Below, in pieces: positions 2,227 to 6,518 of a DNA stretch of 12,303 nt. Position numbers and translations under genes: made by a program. Position 1 is the stretch's first letter. The number at the start of each line of letters is the position of its first letter. The notes under the pieces were generated by a model. It had not been told where the DNA came from and did not search any database. It saw nothing but the letters and a program-made list of their open reading frames with translations. This DNA is from a virus: the UHGV virus genome UHGV-0113946; one strand, given 5' to 3'.

Positions 2227-3117
2227 ATGAAGAAAAAATACGAACTGGTTGTTAAAGGGATAAATAATTACCCGGATAAGATTACTGTTACTGTGGCACT
2301 GGAAGTTGGTGGGTATCCGTCACTGTTGTTGCCAGATGTGGCGATTAGTCTTGACCGTACTGAAGGTGCCACGCTGGAGTTTTACGAAGCTGAGGCGAAA
2401 AAGCAGGCGAAGCAGTTTTTCATGGATGTTGCTGCCGGGTTATGTGAAGGGAACGAACCGTTGCCGGAAAAGCGCCCCATAATTTTAGAGGCGCAAAATG
2501 TGTTGATAACCTACAAAGGAAAGCTACCGGGAAGAATTACTGATTCTCTGAAGATGCCGCCGTCAACACTGCGGTCAGAAAAAGATGATGTTGAATCACG
2601 TATTGAAAAACTGGAGAGCTACGTCGTTGAGCTGAATAAGAAATGGTCGATATTGGTGCCTTCTGGCGATGAAAAGCAGTTTGCTGCGTTTGACGATTAT
2701 TGTCGGAAAGTGATGAGCAGAAATCTCGCAGAGTGTTTCAGTATTCATAATGATAATTTCAGTGAGCTGGAATGGGAGTGTAACCGGCCATCCTTTGTTG
2801 TATCCGGTGATGGTGGGAAAATAACCATCTCAGAAAATGGGAAAGTAACACCTCCATCGCACCAGCACAGTGAGGAGCTCATTGAATTTGCCATTGATTA
2901 CCTGAAGAACAATAAAAAACAGGGGCTGATGCAGCGCATTGGTCGTTGCATGGGGTATCTGCAGGTAGCCGCTGAGATTGAAGCGCTGGCCAGTGGTGCT
3001 GATAAGGATGCAGTTGTGCGGGAGACCGTTCTTCGTGATTTCAATACTCCACCCTTTAAGACTGAGCCTGATAACTGGATCCAGCCGGGGCTGACTTATC
3101 TTAAAGTGCGTATTTAG
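2227..3117 (+). CDS. Hypothetical cytoplasmic protein (296 aa) inserted between holin and endolysin; no recognised domain
   Basis: Long ATG-initiated ORF; GGAGAG Shine-Dalgarno 7 nt upstream, start only 4 nt after the holin stop; markedly AT-richer than the flanking genes (first 60 nt about 30% GC); no signal peptide or transmembrane segment; predicted coiled-coil segment near residues 115-140. Confidence 0.75.
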   Translation: MKKKYELVVKGINNYPDKITVTVALEVGGYPSLLLPDVAISLDRTEGATLEFYEAEAKKQAKQFFMDVAAGLCEGNEPLPEKRPIILEAQNVLITYKGKLPGRITDSLKMPPSTLRSEKDDVESRIEKLESYVVELNKKWSILVPSGDEKQFAAFDDYCRKVMSRNLAECFSIHNDNFSELEWECNRPSFVVSGDGGKITISENGKVTPPSHQHSEELIEFAIDYLKNNKKQGLMQRIGRCMGYLQVAAEIEALASGADKDAVVRETVLRDFNTPPFKTEPDNWIQPGLTYLKVRI

Positions 3118-3153: not shown

Positions 3154-3687
3154 ATGAACACCAAAATCAAATACGGCCTGTCGGCTGCCGTTCTGGCGCT
3201 GATTGCCGCTGGTGCGCCTGCGCCTGACATTCTCGACCAGTTTCTGGATGAAAAAGAAGGTAACCACACCACGGCATACCGTGATGGTGCGGGTATCTGG
3301 ACCATCTGCCGTGGAGCCACCCGGGTGGATGGTAAGCCTGTTATTCCTGGCATGAAGCTGTCGAAGGGGAAATGCGACCGGGTTAACGCCATTGAGCGTG
3401 ATAAGGCGCTGGCATGGGTGGAGAAAAACATCAAAGTGCCACTGACTGAACCCCAGAAAGCGGGAATTGCGTCATTCTGTCCTTACAACATTGGCCCCGG
3501 TAAGTGTTTCCCGTCGACGTTTTATAAACGAATTAATGCAGGCGATCGCAGGGGAGCGTGTGAGGCGATTCGCTGGTGGATTAAGGACGGTGGCAGAGAC
3601 TGCCGTATTCGCTCAAATAATTGCTATGGTCAGATATCCCGTCGTGACCAGGAGAGCGCGCTGGCGTGCTGGGGAATCGACAGATAA
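3154..3687 (+). CDS. R: SAR (signal-anchor-release) endolysin, lysozyme family
   Basis: N-terminal Gly/Ala-rich weakly hydrophobic segment (GLSAAVLALIAAGAPA) typical of SAR domains, followed by a T4-lysozyme-like catalytic E...D...T arrangement (DEKEGNHTTAYRDGAGIWT); position after the pinholin. Confidence 0.85.
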   Translation: MNTKIKYGLSAAVLALIAAGAPAPDILDQFLDEKEGNHTTAYRDGAGIWTICRGATRVDGKPVIPGMKLSKGKCDRVNAIERDKALAWVEKNIKVPLTEPQKAGIASFCPYNIGPGKCFPSTFYKRINAGDRRGACEAIRWWIKDGGRDCRIRSNNCYGQISRRDQESALACWGIDR

Positions 3688-4040: not shown

Positions 4041-4172
4041 ATGTCAGACAAACTCATAACGCTGGCGAAGATCCTCTGTGTAATTGTCGGCATTTCATTT
4101 TCACTAATGCTGGTTGCTCTTTTTCTTTCCATGGCCTGGATGATGTTGTCTTCGTCGGGGCTGCTGGGGTGA
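4041..4172 (+). CDS. Hypothetical small membrane protein (43 aa)
   Basis: ATG at 4041 with GGGAGG Shine-Dalgarno 7 nt upstream; almost entirely one transmembrane segment ([26 protein letters not shown]); its stop overlaps the Rz start region. Confidence 0.45.
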
Positions 4173-4669
4173 ACATAAACCGAATGCTTTCCGCGTTTAT
4201 CGTTATTCTGCTGGTGGCCTGTGGAGCGCTGTGGATGGCAACAGACCATTACCGTGATAACGCGATTACCTACAAAGCGCAGCGCGATAACAAAGCCAGT
4301 GAACTGAAGCTGGCGAACGCAACTATTACTGATATGCAGGTGCGCCAGCGCGATGTTGCTGCGCTCGATGCAAAATACTCGAGGGAATTAGCCGATGCGA
4401 GAGCTGAAAATGAAACTCTTCGCGCTGACGTTGCCGCTGGTCGTAAGCGCCTGCGGATCAACGCCACCTGTCCAGGCTCCGTGCGTGAAGCCCCCACCAC
4501 CTCCGGCGTGGATAATGCAACCGGCCCCCGACTGGCAGACACCGCTGAACGGGATTATTTCATACTCAGAGAACGGTTGATGACAATGCAGAAGCAGCTG
4601 GAAGGGGCGCAGGAATATATCCGCACTCAGTGCACTAAGCTGGCTTTTTATTATCCGGAGGATACATGA
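4169..4669 (+). CDS. Rz: Rz inner-membrane spanin (i-spanin), lambda-like
   Basis: N-terminal transmembrane segment then [14 protein letters not shown]...[10 protein letters not shown]...VAAGRKRL...[10 protein letters not shown]...[13 protein letters not shown], closely matching lambda Rz as recalled. Start is either GTG 4169 or ATG 4184 (ambiguous). Confidence 0.85.
4395..4580 (+). CDS. Rz1: Rz1 outer-membrane lipoprotein spanin (o-spanin), embedded out of frame within Rz
   Basis: [20 protein letters not shown] lipoprotein signal with lipobox Cys, then proline-rich [26 protein letters not shown], closely matching lambda Rz1 as recalled; entirely inside the Rz reading frame in a different frame. 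Confidence 0.8.
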
Positions 4670-4890
4670 AGAAATTACGGGTAACCGTAGAACCTTTTCA
4701 GGGAACAATTCCGTTCCGTATTTTGCAGCGTGGTCGTGTTCTTGTTGAAGGTTCGTTCAGTGGTAAATGTACGCAATTACACTCCCGGACCTTTCAGGTG
4801 AATGCCACGAATGAAGAGCTAACCGTGGAGTGTACGATGAATGCCGCTAAATGCCGCATGGTATCCGCTGCATTACAGCCAGTGTGTTGA
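4666..4890 (+). CDS. Hypothetical protein (74 aa) translationally coupled to Rz
   Basis: ATG overlaps the Rz stop codon (ATGA at 4666-4669); no recognisable domain; four Cys residues. Confidence 0.4.
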
Positions 4891-5228
4891 GCGACCTTAT
4901 TATCCATGCGCGGTATTGTCGCCGTATTCCTGCATTAACAGAGACCGCAGCCCGACAGGGAGACTCCTCTGCGCGAGTGTGCGGGGATAATCAAAAACGA
5001 TACACACCGGGGTTTACCGCGTTAACGGAGCGCGGCGTTGTCCCCTCATGGTCGCTGGTCCGGTGCGATGGTGGAAGAAACCGGACGATGTGTTACCTCG
5101 CATGACCTGTTATGTCATGTGTCTGATTTGTGATTTAAGTCGGATAATTGTCGTTGCCATTAAGCAGAGGATTGATGGCCGACAGGGTGGCATTGTTAGA
5201 ATAAGACTTATTCTTATCTGTGCCGGGA

Positions 5229-5561
5229 ATGAAAATGAAAAGAAATCTTCCGTTAATTATTTTGTTGTCTTCTCTGGTTATGGGCTGTACGCAACATAAA
5301 ACAGATATGCCCCGACAGTTGGTTAAGGCATTACCACAATATCCGGCCTATGCAGCGGCAAATTATATAAAGGGACGGGTTGATGTGAAGTTTGATATTG
5401 GTGCTGATGGTACTGTCACCCGAATTGAGTTTATCCGTTCAGAGCCGCACCATCTGTTTGATGAGCAGGTTGTAAAGGCGATGGCAAAATGGCGATTTGA
5501 GAAGGACAGGCCGCGTAAAGGCGTGAAGAAATCGTTTATCTTTAGTCCTTCTGCACCCTGA
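5229..5561 (+). CDS. Lipoprotein consisting of a TonB C-terminal domain (TonB_C-like), probable moron
   Basis: Signal peptide MKMKRNLPLIILLSSLVMG followed by Cys (lipobox-like LVMGC; residue +2 is Thr, not Asp). The mature region LPQYPAYAAANYIKGRVDVKFDIGADGTVTRIEFIRSEPHHLFDEQVVKAMAKWRFEKDRP aligns by eye with the E. coli TonB C-terminal domain as recalled ([61 protein letters not shown]). AT-rich relative to the flanks. Alternative starts at GTG 5220 or ATG 5235. Confidence 0.8.
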   Translation: MKMKRNLPLIILLSSLVMGCTQHKTDMPRQLVKALPQYPAYAAANYIKGRVDVKFDIGADGTVTRIEFIRSEPHHLFDEQVVKAMAKWRFEKDRPRKGVKKSFIFSPSAP

Positions 5562-5692
5562 TTATTTCATCAGAAATTAATTATCACTCTGTTGTTATTC
5601 TGTACATCCCGGCAGGGTAAGTCTTGTTCCGTCGGATATGAAGATGAAATATTGTTGGAGGACAGTGGGTACCTGCTCCTGTAACCGAACGT

Positions 5693-5893
5693 TCATTTCT
5701 CGTTATTTGTCATGCTGGTCGGGCGCAGATGCGTTGCATCTGTTGCCAGCCTTCTCCTGCAGGCTTCAATAACCCACGCTGAAAAGTTACCGGACCCTTT
5801 ATGCTCAAGGGCTATGTTGATTTGTTCAATTATGTGATTGGGGAAACGGATATTGCGGGTTGTGGTTCTGCGGGTCCGGTTTTTCGATGACAT
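5693..5893 (-). CDS. Small ribbon-helix-helix-like protein (66 aa), resembles DUF3950 / YlcI-type prophage proteins
   Basis: Minus-strand ORF; preferred start is the internal Met (MSSKNRTRRTTTRNIRFPNHIIEQINIALEHKGSGNFSAWVIEACRRRL) with AAGGA Shine-Dalgarno 7 nt upstream. The beta-strand / helix / turn / helix pattern is typical of Arc/CopG-type RHH folds. Family assignment is from memory and tentative. Confidence 0.55.
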   Translation of the reverse strand: MSSKNRTRRTTTRNIRFPNHIIEQINIALEHKGSGNFSAWVIEACRRRLATDATHLRPTSMTNNEK

Positions 5894-5934
5894 ATTTATT
5901 TCCTTTACTGATTGCCATATGACGGGGATTTTAC

Positions 5935-6300
5935 ATGGCTGAGCTTCGTACACTCCAGAGCAGAATCAAAACACTGAATACCCGACGGGTGAATATTCTG
6001 AAGGGGGAACAGCGTCGTGTCAGTGGCAGTGCACGTGTTTCCCTCAAGCGTCATATCTGGCTCAGGGATGCCGGGCAGTGCTGTCTCTGTGGTCGTGTGG
6101 TTGACCTCTGTGACAGTGAACTCGATCACCGAATTGCACTTCAGTTCGGTGGTGGTAATGAGGAGACGAATCTCTGGACGCTCTGTACCGAATGCCATCG
6201 ACAAAAGTCTGCTCGTGAAGCGGCGGGTGGTATGCCGGACCCGACGCTGCCGGAGGTGTCCGGAGGTAGTGGCAGAGCGGACGACATCATCGGACTGTAA
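5935..6300 (+). CDS. HNH endonuclease (packaging-associated, HK97 gp74-like)
   Basis: HNH motif CCLCGRVVD...DHRIALQFGGGNEETNLWTLCTECHRQKS with two Cys pairs and the His-Asn-His arrangement; sits immediately upstream of the terminase genes, as in HK97-type packaging modules. Confidence 0.85.
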   Translation: MAELRTLQSRIKTLNTRRVNILKGEQRRVSGSARVSLKRHIWLRDAGQCCLCGRVVDLCDSELDHRIALQFGGGNEETNLWTLCTECHRQKSAREAAGGMPDPTLPEVSGGSGRADDIIGL

Positions 6301-6391
6301 CCCGACCCGGGGGGGTATCATCCGGCGTAAAAAACGATCGCTCCGGACACCGCGCCCCCTCTCACGCAGAGAAAAAATTCCCGTTTCAGGG

Positions 6392-6518
6392 CAGTTAACA
6401 TGTTAACTGGCTGCCCGGGCATTTTTGCGGTTTTTATCTTTATAATTCAGTTTGTTGTGCGGAAAAAATGTTAACTGGCTTTTTCAGCAAATGTTAACCA
6501 GGCAGCAGTTAACATTTG
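6392..6518. promoter_or_regulatory. Candidate cos-proximal terminase recognition region: repeated palindromic GTTAAC-containing motifs separated by an AT-rich segment
   Basis: Perfect 18-bp palindrome cagttaacatgttaactg (6392-6409); motif aatgttaactgg again at 6467-6478; inverted pair caaatgttaac (6488-6498) and gttaacatttg (6508-6518); A-tract and T-tract rich DNA at 6421-6470. Lies between the HNH and small-terminase genes. Confidence 0.45.

Follow-up and report, generated by a model that had tools for sequence, protein, structure and literature searches.

A prophage gene for a TonB C-terminal domain with a predicted lipid anchor, a candidate TonB-box decoy

Introduction

Why does a prophage encode a lipoprotein that is made up almost wholly of TonB's C-terminal domain? 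The question is raised by a gene at positions 5235 to 5561 (+ strand, 108 amino acids, stop codon included) of the viral genome UHGV-0113946, of which we analyzed a stretch of 12,303 nucleotides (the window) that represents the late region of a prophage of the lambdoid group with a head of the HK97 type. The original prediction, made from the nucleotide sequence alone, took the product (here, the TonB-C lipoprotein) for a membrane-tethered mimic of TonB that could occupy the TonB boxes of outer-membrane transporters, block TonB-dependent phages and group B colicins, or change iron uptake by the host.

Results and Discussion

The gene product is a TonB C-terminal domain with a predicted lipid anchor

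Residues 26–104 of the product (positions 5310 to 5546, + strand) align without gaps with residues 153–231 of Escherichia coli TonB. The identity, counted from the phmmer alignment to Protein Data Bank (PDB) chains, is 31/79 residues (39%). Residue numbers are those of the 108-amino acid form unless stated otherwise; in 110-amino acid numbering the aligned segment is 28–106. The domain had been recognized by eye, and the profile searches bear this out: Pfam PF03544 (TonB_C) matched above its gathering score (E=7.8e-15, 55.5 bits vs. a cutoff of 24.6), NCBIfam TIGR01352 (tonB_Cterm) matched at E=7.5e-15 (55 bits vs. 27.1), and phmmer against the PDB gave E ~1e-16 for three chains of E. coli TonB (1u07, 2gsk_B and 2grx_C). 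The NCBIfam equivalog models for TonB were matched in their C-terminal part alone (e.g., 157–240 of 249), with 72 bits vs. a cutoff of 315. The YP motif (Y36 P37) is retained, as are the aromatic positions Y163, F180, F202, W213, Y215 (as Phe) and F230 of TonB, and also its G186. TonB Q160 is replaced by Leu (L33) and TonB R166 by Tyr.

An AlphaFold2 model built from seven family sequences had a predicted local distance difference test (pLDDT) score >93 over residues 31–100. The modeled elements are a helix (38–42), two strands (47–55 and 61–70), a second helix (76–84) and strand beta3 (94–103), giving the alpha-beta-beta-alpha-beta fold of TonB with a three-stranded sheet and a free beta3 edge. 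Foldseek superposed the model on 1u07, on BtuB-bound TonB (2gsk_B) and on FhuA-bound TonB (2grx_C) with a root-mean-square deviation of 1.0–1.1 Å; a superposition on TonB-box-bound TonB had been proposed as a check with the original prediction. The target-normalized template modeling score was 0.91–0.92 for 2gsk_B and 2grx_C, and TolA domain III ranked far lower.

The N-terminal residues 1–18, MKRNLPLIILLSSLVMGC (positions 5235 to 5288, + strand), match the pattern of a lipoprotein signal peptide, as had been proposed. A hydrophobic core follows MKRN, and MKRN-LPLIILLSSLVMG/C fits the PROSITE-type lipobox pattern (lipobox LVMG/C; [LVI][ASTVI][GAS]C with a residue other than Asp at +2). The codon of the lipidated Cys18 is at 5286–5288, and the +2 residue is Thr, as originally read. 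In E. coli, Asp at +2 keeps a lipoprotein in the inner membrane; with Thr at this position the TonB-C lipoprotein is predicted to be sorted to the outer membrane by the +2 rule. The linker is shorter than the ~15 residues first estimated: between the lipidated Cys and the point where the TonB alignment begins there are 7 residues (TQHKTDM), and 17 lead to the YP motif.

Read directly from the 108-amino acid sequence, both the transmembrane anchor and the Pro-rich region of TonB are absent, in agreement with the first description. The sole hydrophobic segment is the lipoprotein signal peptide, which is predicted to be cleavable, and the two features of a TonB energy transducer, an N-terminal transmembrane anchor for ExbB-ExbD and a Pro-rich spacer, are lacking. 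These results confirm that the gene product is a complete TonB C-terminal domain, strand beta3 included, behind a predicted lipid anchor. It has in common with the E. coli TonB C-terminal domain (residues ~153–233; PDB 1u07, 1xx3, 2gsk and 2grx) the fold, the sequence identity, the YP motif, the aromatic residues, G186 and beta3. Unlike TonB, it has no N-terminal transmembrane helix, no ExbB/ExbD coupling and no Pro-rich spacer, it carries Tyr for R166 and Leu for Q160, and it falls in a separate clade of short lipoproteins. Its lipid anchor is predicted to lie in the membrane opposite to that of TonB and, because of this and of the missing ExbB/ExbD coupling, energy transduction would not be possible.

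The open reading frame (ORF) described originally (5229–5561, + strand, 110 codons and 110 amino acids, from an in-frame ATG at 5229) is real, but translation more probably begins at the second ATG, at 5235, because GGGA at 5225–5228 sits 6 nt before it and RefSeq annotates the 108-amino acid form (WP_000828070.1, identical at 107 of 108 residues).

The gene is under purifying selection and its product is made in the lysogen

An intact lipoprotein ORF with few polymorphic sites was present in 80 of the 80 IMG/VR loci retrieved. The pairwise ratio of nonsynonymous to synonymous substitution rates (dN/dS) was 0.06–0.26 where dS was unsaturated, and 0.12 between the window's clade and the phage 21 clade. 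Some copies of the phage 21-type clade are frameshifted. The gene is under purifying selection.

In the proteomics of E. coli O157:H7 EDL933, the 'TonB-like membrane protein' EDL933_2289 of prophage CP-933N was quantified at 3 h and at 12 h; its fold change with ciprofloxacin was -1.33 and -1.02, and at the RNA level there was no differential expression (PMC11125564 Table S1). The same flat pattern was seen for Bor, and the late genes of the induced Stx2 phage went up 20- to 100-fold (PMC11125564 Table S1). Since its abundance is flat on induction, the protein is already present in the uninduced lysogen. Thus, it is made there as is the product of a lysogenic-conversion gene, which answers the question of lysogenic expression that the original prediction had put.

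The gene had also been proposed to be an independently expressed moron. A low-GC island (see below), a patchy presence in related phages and the protein found in the lysogen speak for this proposal, but a consensus promoter was not found: a two-hexamer sigma-70 consensus scan of the + strand gave no match. The terminator scan gave no terminator downstream of the gene. The sole TGnTAnnnT match in the upstream gap, TGTTAGAAT (positions 5194 to 5202, + strand), is a candidate extended -10 element; phage 21 carries TGTCAGAAT at the aligned position. A perfect 8-1-8 palindrome, AGAATAAG-A-CTTATTCT (positions 5198 to 5214), overlaps the candidate -10 element and weakly resembles a Fur box (13/19). 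It is not significant as a Fur box, because it is one of four 13/19 sites in the 12.3 kb of the window. Moreover, phage 21 does not share the palindrome, since it lacks the second arm (the window's clade has a 13-bp insertion), and on both grounds the site was rejected as a sign of iron control of the prophage copy. A terminator-like hairpin with an 8-bp stem (positions 5099 to 5121), listed with its T-rich tail as 5099 to 5131 (+ strand), marks the left edge of the low-GC island. In lambdoid late operons, Q-antiterminated transcription reads through during lytic growth; the TonB-C gene is on the late-operon strand and should be transcribed additionally by this route.

The gene is widespread and long annotated

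Annotated since 2001 and very common, the gene is unstudied rather than newly found. By blastn, a homolog was detected in 1616 of 5426 complete E. coli genomes (~30%). The window's clade (at least 95% identity) accounts for ~414 E. coli genomes, and a second clade (~74% nucleotide identity), which includes uropathogenic E. coli (UPEC) CFT073, for ~1200. The arrangement seen in the window recurs with 98.9% identity in many E. coli chromosomes, and also in the CP-933N prophage of EDL933, where the gene is EDL933_RS11180 (the 107/108 identical WP_000828070.1). The isolated phages with the gene (n=15) include Stx1a-converting phages, JLK-2012, Lys8385Vzw, ev017, Perceval and phage 21, whose copy (CPT_21_73, 'TonB C-terminal domain protein', 71% identical) comes after bor and before cos.

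RefSeq names the product 'TonB family protein', and EDL933-derived records and Perceval use 'partial tonB-like membrane protein encoded within prophage CP-933N' or 'TonB fragment'. The genome announcement of phage 21 does not discuss the gene. Full-text literature searches turned up no functional work on the gene or on any lipoprotein with a TonB_C domain, the PADLOC-DB v2 defense models gave no family at E<=0.01, and no similar structure was found among the BFVD viral structures, in line with the original prediction, to which no characterized system of this kind was known. That prediction is reasonable but has to be amended on two points: the gene is long annotated and common, and its family is not phage-specific. 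New here are the purifying selection, the presence in proteomics, the non-phage members, a Fur-box footprint in Klebsiella and Raoultella, a link to colicin immunity in Serratia and a sister lipoprotein with a TolA domain.

Some chromosomal relatives carry a Fur-box-like footprint

A sequence search of 1.84 billion representatives gave 4873 TonB_C matches. Besides fragments of the protein itself and a few multi-repeat TonB_C proteins, the closest relatives were ~15 short proteins (~105–135 amino acids) that align from residue 1, and further members, from Salmonella, Pantoea, Erwinia, Rahnella and Serratia, came out of a profile search. Nearly all of these have a lipobox, and the +2 residue is never Asp; a lipobox without Asp at +2 is likewise conserved across three phage clades and >20 family representatives. 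The Rahnella copy is in a lambdoid prophage, again between the Rz and terminase genes, and the copy of the Klebsiella phage ST13-OXA48phi12.4 lies between lysis genes and terminase genes.

The Klebsiella and Raoultella copies occupy a conserved chromosomal site with the order lacZ, lacI, two small envelope-protein genes, TonB-C and DUF1440. No phage genes were present within 6 kb of the gene at this site, and tblastn with phage lysis and terminase proteins returned nothing significant there, showing that these copies are not prophage-borne. The Pantoea and Salmonella copies are in chromosomal contexts with no recognizable phage genes. Phage ST13-OXA48phi12.4 has diverged TonB-C and DUF1440 (YagU-like) genes (lying at two sites of its locus L003, 2277–2903 and 5968–6336, compared with 5998–7290 of the chromosomal locus L006), whose products are 53–56% (TonB-C) and 61% (DUF1440) identical to the chromosomal proteins. 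The two genes are adjacent on the Klebsiella and Raoultella chromosomes and both are found in the Klebsiella phage, suggesting that their products may work together. Given the chromosomal members in Klebsiella, Raoultella, Pantoea and Salmonella and the Klebsiella phage copies of both genes, the phage gene is more likely an acquired cellular lipoprotein than a recent truncation of tonB.

Directly upstream of the ribosome-binding site, the block GTGATAnTATTGAkAATTATTATCAATA is invariant in five Klebsiella/Raoultella loci (L005–L009; e.g., L008 5967–5991), and the DNA further upstream diverges. The block holds GATAAT-T-ATTATC or GAGAAT-T-ATTATC and scores 15–16/19 vs. the Fur consensus; the positive control of the scan, the sitA promoter of phage 21, scored 17/19. 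In a shuffle test, 0 of 300 shuffles reached the score in three of four loci, and ~1% did so in the fourth. The block is the sole site with at least 14/19 in each Klebsiella/Raoultella locus (7.6–12.3 kb scanned). The Pantoea member has GAGAAT-C-ATTCTC (14/19) 31 nt upstream. This footprint predicts that the Klebsiella and Raoultella homologs would be iron-regulated via Fur, and it points to a family function in iron and TonB physiology rather than in lysis or the overall structure of the envelope; an inhibitor and a helper would both fit with it.

The genome of phage 21 contains a complete sitABCD iron/manganese transporter operon (L002 132–3581) with the 17/19 Fur box at 3652–3676, and bor and the TonB-C gene in the same genome. 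Metal uptake by sitABCD is TonB-independent and could offset a TonB-dampening factor in this phage.

A TolA-domain sister lipoprotein and a Serratia colicin module

The closest relative of the window, a prophage of NZ_CP075852 (L001; 98.9% identical to window 4600–6000), has a second gene of related design. This 142-amino acid gene, annotated 'TolA' (L001 13929–14357), is in the stx-equivalent slot downstream of Q and tRNA-Ile/Arg, and its product joins the lipobox LTTG/C (Thr at +2) to the C-terminal domain of TolA (PF06519, E=3.4e-22). Genes for this lipoprotein were found in 126 of the 5426 E. coli genomes. Both proteins consist of a lipobox with Thr at +2, a linker and a transducer C-terminal domain of the same fold superfamily, and both occur in the same lambdoid lineage. 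The sister differs in having TolA domain III rather than TonB_C, in its stx-equivalent slot and in being rarer; it is likewise uncharacterized. Two lipid-anchored transducer-domain copies in one phage lineage fit with a strategy of mimicry or decoy.

In Serratia, the members of a subgroup (119 amino acids) have an ordinary signal peptide and no lipobox, and are presumably soluble in the periplasm. Here, the TonB_C gene is followed by a co-oriented colicin E1-type immunity gene and a convergent gene for a pore-forming colicin (L122 6001–8510, L124 6001–8447). These three genes are together on a chromosomal island and again on a plasmid-like contig, which share DNA (83% identical) from 22 bp before the TonB_C start codon to shortly beyond the colicin gene. 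Other Serratia strains keep the TonB_C gene in place and have the colicin pair swapped for other cargo. In one of them (L127 2940–5300), a 786-amino acid SIR2_2-domain gene stands at the site of the colicin-immunity pair beside TonB_C; the site is thus a variable island that receives defense or competition cargo.

The association links the family to bacteriocin loci. Residues 10–106 of the Serratia colicin match the translocation domain of colicin A together with its segments for TolB and TolA binding (3iax_B, 3qdr_B and Pfam ColA_N), which implies that this colicin would be Tol-dependent. The motif 'DSMTV' of the same protein, considered as a TonB box, was withdrawn since the N-terminus is a colicin A-type translocation domain.

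A proposed decoy mechanism

As the leading mechanism, to which we give somewhat less than an even chance, we propose that the lipoprotein is a TonB-box decoy that competes unproductively with TonB. From its architecture and fold we infer a mode of action as follows. The lipoprotein would present an unenergized TonB domain beside the periplasmic face of the outer-membrane transporters, and its free beta3 edge would capture TonB-box peptides by beta-augmentation, as in TonB. The targets would be the N-terminal TonB boxes of the transporters and, possibly, the boxes of incoming group B colicins, which bear TonB boxes of their own, and of related bacteriocins. With no link to the ExbB-ExbD motor no force would be applied, so that binding would be unproductive and would compete with that of genuine TonB. 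Irreversible adsorption of T1/phi80-type phages and import of TonB-dependent bacteriocins and antibiotics would be lowered, and siderophore and B12 uptake would be reduced as a cost or as a regulated effect. Because the protein is made during lysogeny, it would act as a lysogenic-conversion factor of the exclusion type.

Several observations argue for this mechanism. Among them are the complete domain with its close fit to receptor-bound TonB, the conserved lipobox without Asp at +2, the purifying selection, the protein seen in the lysogen, the iron link of the Klebsiella and Raoultella members and the TolA-domain sister. The TonB allele Q160L is functional, and with it TonB-box mutants of FhuA and of colicin M regain activity (PMC11658791), so that Leu at L33 fits with binding of a TonB box. 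Pentapeptides of the TonB box act as inhibitors of colicin killing and of infection by phi80 (PMC9841981). The original prediction named soluble TonB C-terminal fragments as competitive inhibitors of transport and, as PMC9841981 relates the work of Howard et al. (2001), an overexpressed periplasmic TonB domain is reported to inhibit TonB-dependent iron import. By that account, the soluble fragments share with the TonB-C lipoprotein a periplasmic TonB domain uncoupled from the motor, and inhibition of FecA and FhuA import was reported to be by competition. They differ in being laboratory constructs that were overexpressed; the TonB-C lipoprotein is a natural gene product with a predicted lipid anchor and ~60% of positions diverged.

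The phage lipoproteins Llp (T5) and Cor (phi80, N15, HK022 and mEp167) offer a second precedent. Both act on FhuA from within the outer membrane's inner leaflet, and at the periplasmic face of FhuA the binding of TonB and that of Llp appear to interfere mutually. Hence, they show that a TonB-dependent transporter can be disabled from this leaflet. The design is shared, since Llp and Cor are also small phage lipoproteins, and their position in the inner leaflet is the one predicted for the TonB-C lipoprotein; their action from the periplasmic side on a TonB-dependent transporter, with phage exclusion, is known activity, and its TonB-C counterpart is a proposal. Llp and Cor are specific for FhuA and allosteric on its plug and loops, whereas a TonB mimic would be generic for partners with a TonB box. 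Searches of Pfam, PHROGs and the PDB gave no likeness of the TonB-C protein to Llp or Cor, and the Llp fold differs (PDB 8A60).

Bor of lambda (Iss) shares other traits: it is a lipoprotein moron of the outer membrane, the location predicted for TonB-C, in the same slot (Rz to cos/terminase), it is lysogen-expressed, and it is not induced in EDL933. Between Rz and the cos/terminase genes, bor is alone in BP-933W, bor and TonB-C are together in phage 21, and TonB-C is alone here. Bor is unrelated to the TonB-C lipoprotein in sequence and in fold, and it confers serum resistance. We place the TonB-C lipoprotein, as a candidate, among the conversion or exclusion factors that are prophage lipoproteins of the outer membrane, its predicted location; its fold and predicted action are undescribed for such factors.

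Other observations weigh against a TonB-box decoy. Tyr takes the place of TonB R166, a reported contact with FhuA, and the residue at position 160 differs from clade to clade (Leu, Tyr or Gln). The 7-residue tether might be incompatible with the geometry of the TonB-transporter crystal complexes. TonB boxes far outnumber TonB, so that a decoy would need a high copy number. An inhibitor of transport that is derepressed by Fur in iron starvation, as is implied for the chromosomal homologs, is counter-intuitive, and a whole-locus scan gave no significant Fur box at the prophage copies. Carriage by ~30% of E. coli genomes means that any cost in iron uptake must be small. Finally, the colicin linked to the gene in Serratia has a Tol-dependent translocation domain of the colicin A type, so that this linkage lends no support to a TonB-box decoy against that toxin.

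Alternative functions

The lipoprotein could bind TonB itself rather than TonB boxes, which would dampen TonB-dependent processes in the same way through a scarcer target. TonB C-terminal fragments crystallize as dimers, one of which (1u07) is the best structural match of the model, and the aromatic residues lining the TonB dimer interfaces are conserved in the TonB-C lipoprotein. Furthermore, TonB is far scarcer than the transporters (PMC9841981), and titrating it would therefore take fewer decoy molecules. However, according to the title of PMC3005593, TonB does not adopt its dimeric crystal structures in vivo, and the TonB-C model has the monomeric fold that matches receptor-bound TonB; we regard TonB as quite an improbable target. 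A regulator or helper of iron uptake, originally a cellular iron-regulated lipoprotein that tunes TonB-dependent transport, for instance by keeping TonB boxes accessible or by prioritizing loaded transporters, is an unlikely but more serious candidate, and its prophage copy would alter the iron physiology of the host. The conserved non-phage site in Klebsiella and Raoultella with its invariant Fur-box footprint, the Pantoea GAGAAT-C-ATTCTC site and the presence of both the TonB-C gene and sitABCD in phage 21 are consistent with such a role. However, we know of no mechanism by which an unenergized TonB domain would assist transport, and the prophage copies are without a significant Fur box. In addition, the sole experimental precedent in the account of PMC9841981 is inhibition. 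The lipoprotein may instead serve in envelope structure, stress or virulence in a manner unrelated to TonB boxes, either as a Bor-like conversion factor (serum resistance, adhesion) or as a link from the outer membrane to peptidoglycan in which the TonB/TolA fold serves as a generic binding module. It shares the moron slot with bor, which it adjoins in phage 21, its chromosomal homologs lie among genes for small envelope proteins (a glycine-zipper lipoprotein and the DUF1440 membrane protein), and a Klebsiella phage has both TonB-C and DUF1440 genes. Binding of peptidoglycan by the TonB C-terminal domain has been proposed. Against an envelope role, the YP motif, the aromatic cluster and beta3 are conserved, which suggests that a TonB-like partner binding was retained, and the Fur footprint ties the cellular branch to iron; we give this role little credence.

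The PHROGs family of the gene is phrog_1267, 'Rz-like spanin' (lysis category, E=9.6e-42), and a predicted outer-membrane lipoprotein encoded just downstream of a lysis cassette could be taken for an o-spanin or an Rz-like spanin. However, a complete Rz with an embedded Rz1 is already present in the window, and the product is a globular TonB_C domain that is neither short and proline-rich nor endowed with the C-terminal transmembrane segment of a unimolecular spanin. The gene lies 560 bp downstream of Rz, and in phage 21 bor intervenes on the opposite strand; the family includes members at non-phage chromosomal sites, and protein abundance is flat on induction. On these grounds a spanin identity was rejected, and we hold it for exceedingly improbable; the label, which will propagate into phage annotations, appears to derive from the position of the gene. 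There is equally little room for a non-functional tonB remnant picked up by the phage, as suggested by the labels 'partial tonB-like' and 'TonB fragment' and by the frameshifted phage 21-type copies. The gene has its own signal peptide and lipobox and the product is only 39% identical to host TonB, and a dead fragment is excluded by the dN/dS of 0.06–0.26, the intact ORF in 80/80 viral contigs and the protein seen in proteomics.

Implications of a TonB-box decoy

A broader reading, which we consider possible but doubtful, is that enterobacterial prophages, some chromosomes and bacteriocin modules deploy lipid-anchored or periplasmic TonB or TolA C-terminal domains as generic, receptor-independent import decoys; as a layer of immunity, these would intercept the TonB-box or TolA-binding epitopes that phages and bacteriocins present in the periplasm, and ~30% of E. 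coli genomes would have the TonB form. The TolA-domain sister suggests a general strategy of this kind.

If the TonB-C lipoprotein is a TonB-box decoy, (i) exclusion would be receptor-independent and would take place at the energy-coupling step common to all TonB-dependent invaders; (ii) the mechanism would operate in ~30% of complete E. coli genomes, including enterohemorrhagic E. coli O157:H7 EDL933 and UPEC CFT073, and in phage 21; (iii) the host range of therapy phages and the sensitivity to colicins, microcins and siderophore-conjugated ("Trojan horse") antibiotics would be affected, as might iron acquisition by pathogens; and (iv) the protein would be a natural inhibitor of the TonB-transporter interaction, a pursued antibiotic target. 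The Fur-linked chromosomal relatives raise the question of whether a TonB domain anchored in the outer membrane serves bacteria themselves in regulating or shielding their iron transporters.

Genomic setting of the gene

The TonB-C gene lies in a low-GC island (positions 5101 to 5953; 41–46% GC vs. 54% for the window) that comprises the proximal promoter region, the TonB-C gene and the YlcI/YnfO gene. The GC content of the gene is 44.0% vs. 54.0% for the window, in accord with the first description of an AT-rich gene on a GC-rich backbone. The ~330 bp of noncoding DNA noted upstream correspond to a gap of 338 bp (4891–5228), in which RefSeq relatives have no annotated gene; the gap as a whole is uneven in composition, and only its proximal part is AT-rich (41% GC at 5101–5234 vs. 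57.6% at 4891–5100). No Rfam family was found in 4600–6100.

Upstream of the island, all on the + strand, are genes for a NanS-p-type esterase (7–1329), a DUF1327 protein (2227–3117), a lysozyme (3154–3687) and the i-spanin Rz (4169–4669; Pfam Phage_lysis, E=3.4e-49). The o-spanin Rz1 is embedded in Rz (4395–4580, + strand) as an ORF with the lipobox VVSA/C and a proline-rich tail. A 74-amino acid ORF (4666–4890, + strand; phrog_2571, function unknown) has no Pfam match; its start at 4666 overlaps the Rz stop codon (ATGA), and it is probably translationally coupled to Rz. A two-gene cassette of this ORF and TonB-C was considered and rejected, since the 74-amino acid ORF at the equivalent position of the Rahnella prophage is unrelated. 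Downstream, the YlcI/YnfO (DUF3950) gene (5693–5953, - strand) is convergent with the TonB-C gene. It is followed on the + strand by genes for an HNH endonuclease (5935–6300), the terminase small (6516–7154) and large (7151–8875) subunits and the capsid gene (8872–10809).

Typing of the receptor through the J protein of CP-933N, whose C-terminal 300 amino acids are 81% identical to mEp460 and 50% to lambda J, names no receptor. In the NZ_CP075852 prophage, the tail-gene module holds an inserted ompC-like porin gene (L001 37229–38323), further envelope-remodeling cargo in this lineage. The 5′ end of the YlcI/YnfO gene and the beginning of the HNH endonuclease gene, which are on opposite strands, have 19 bp in common, and since YlcI/YnfO shares the low-GC island, it may be part of the segment acquired with the TonB-C gene.

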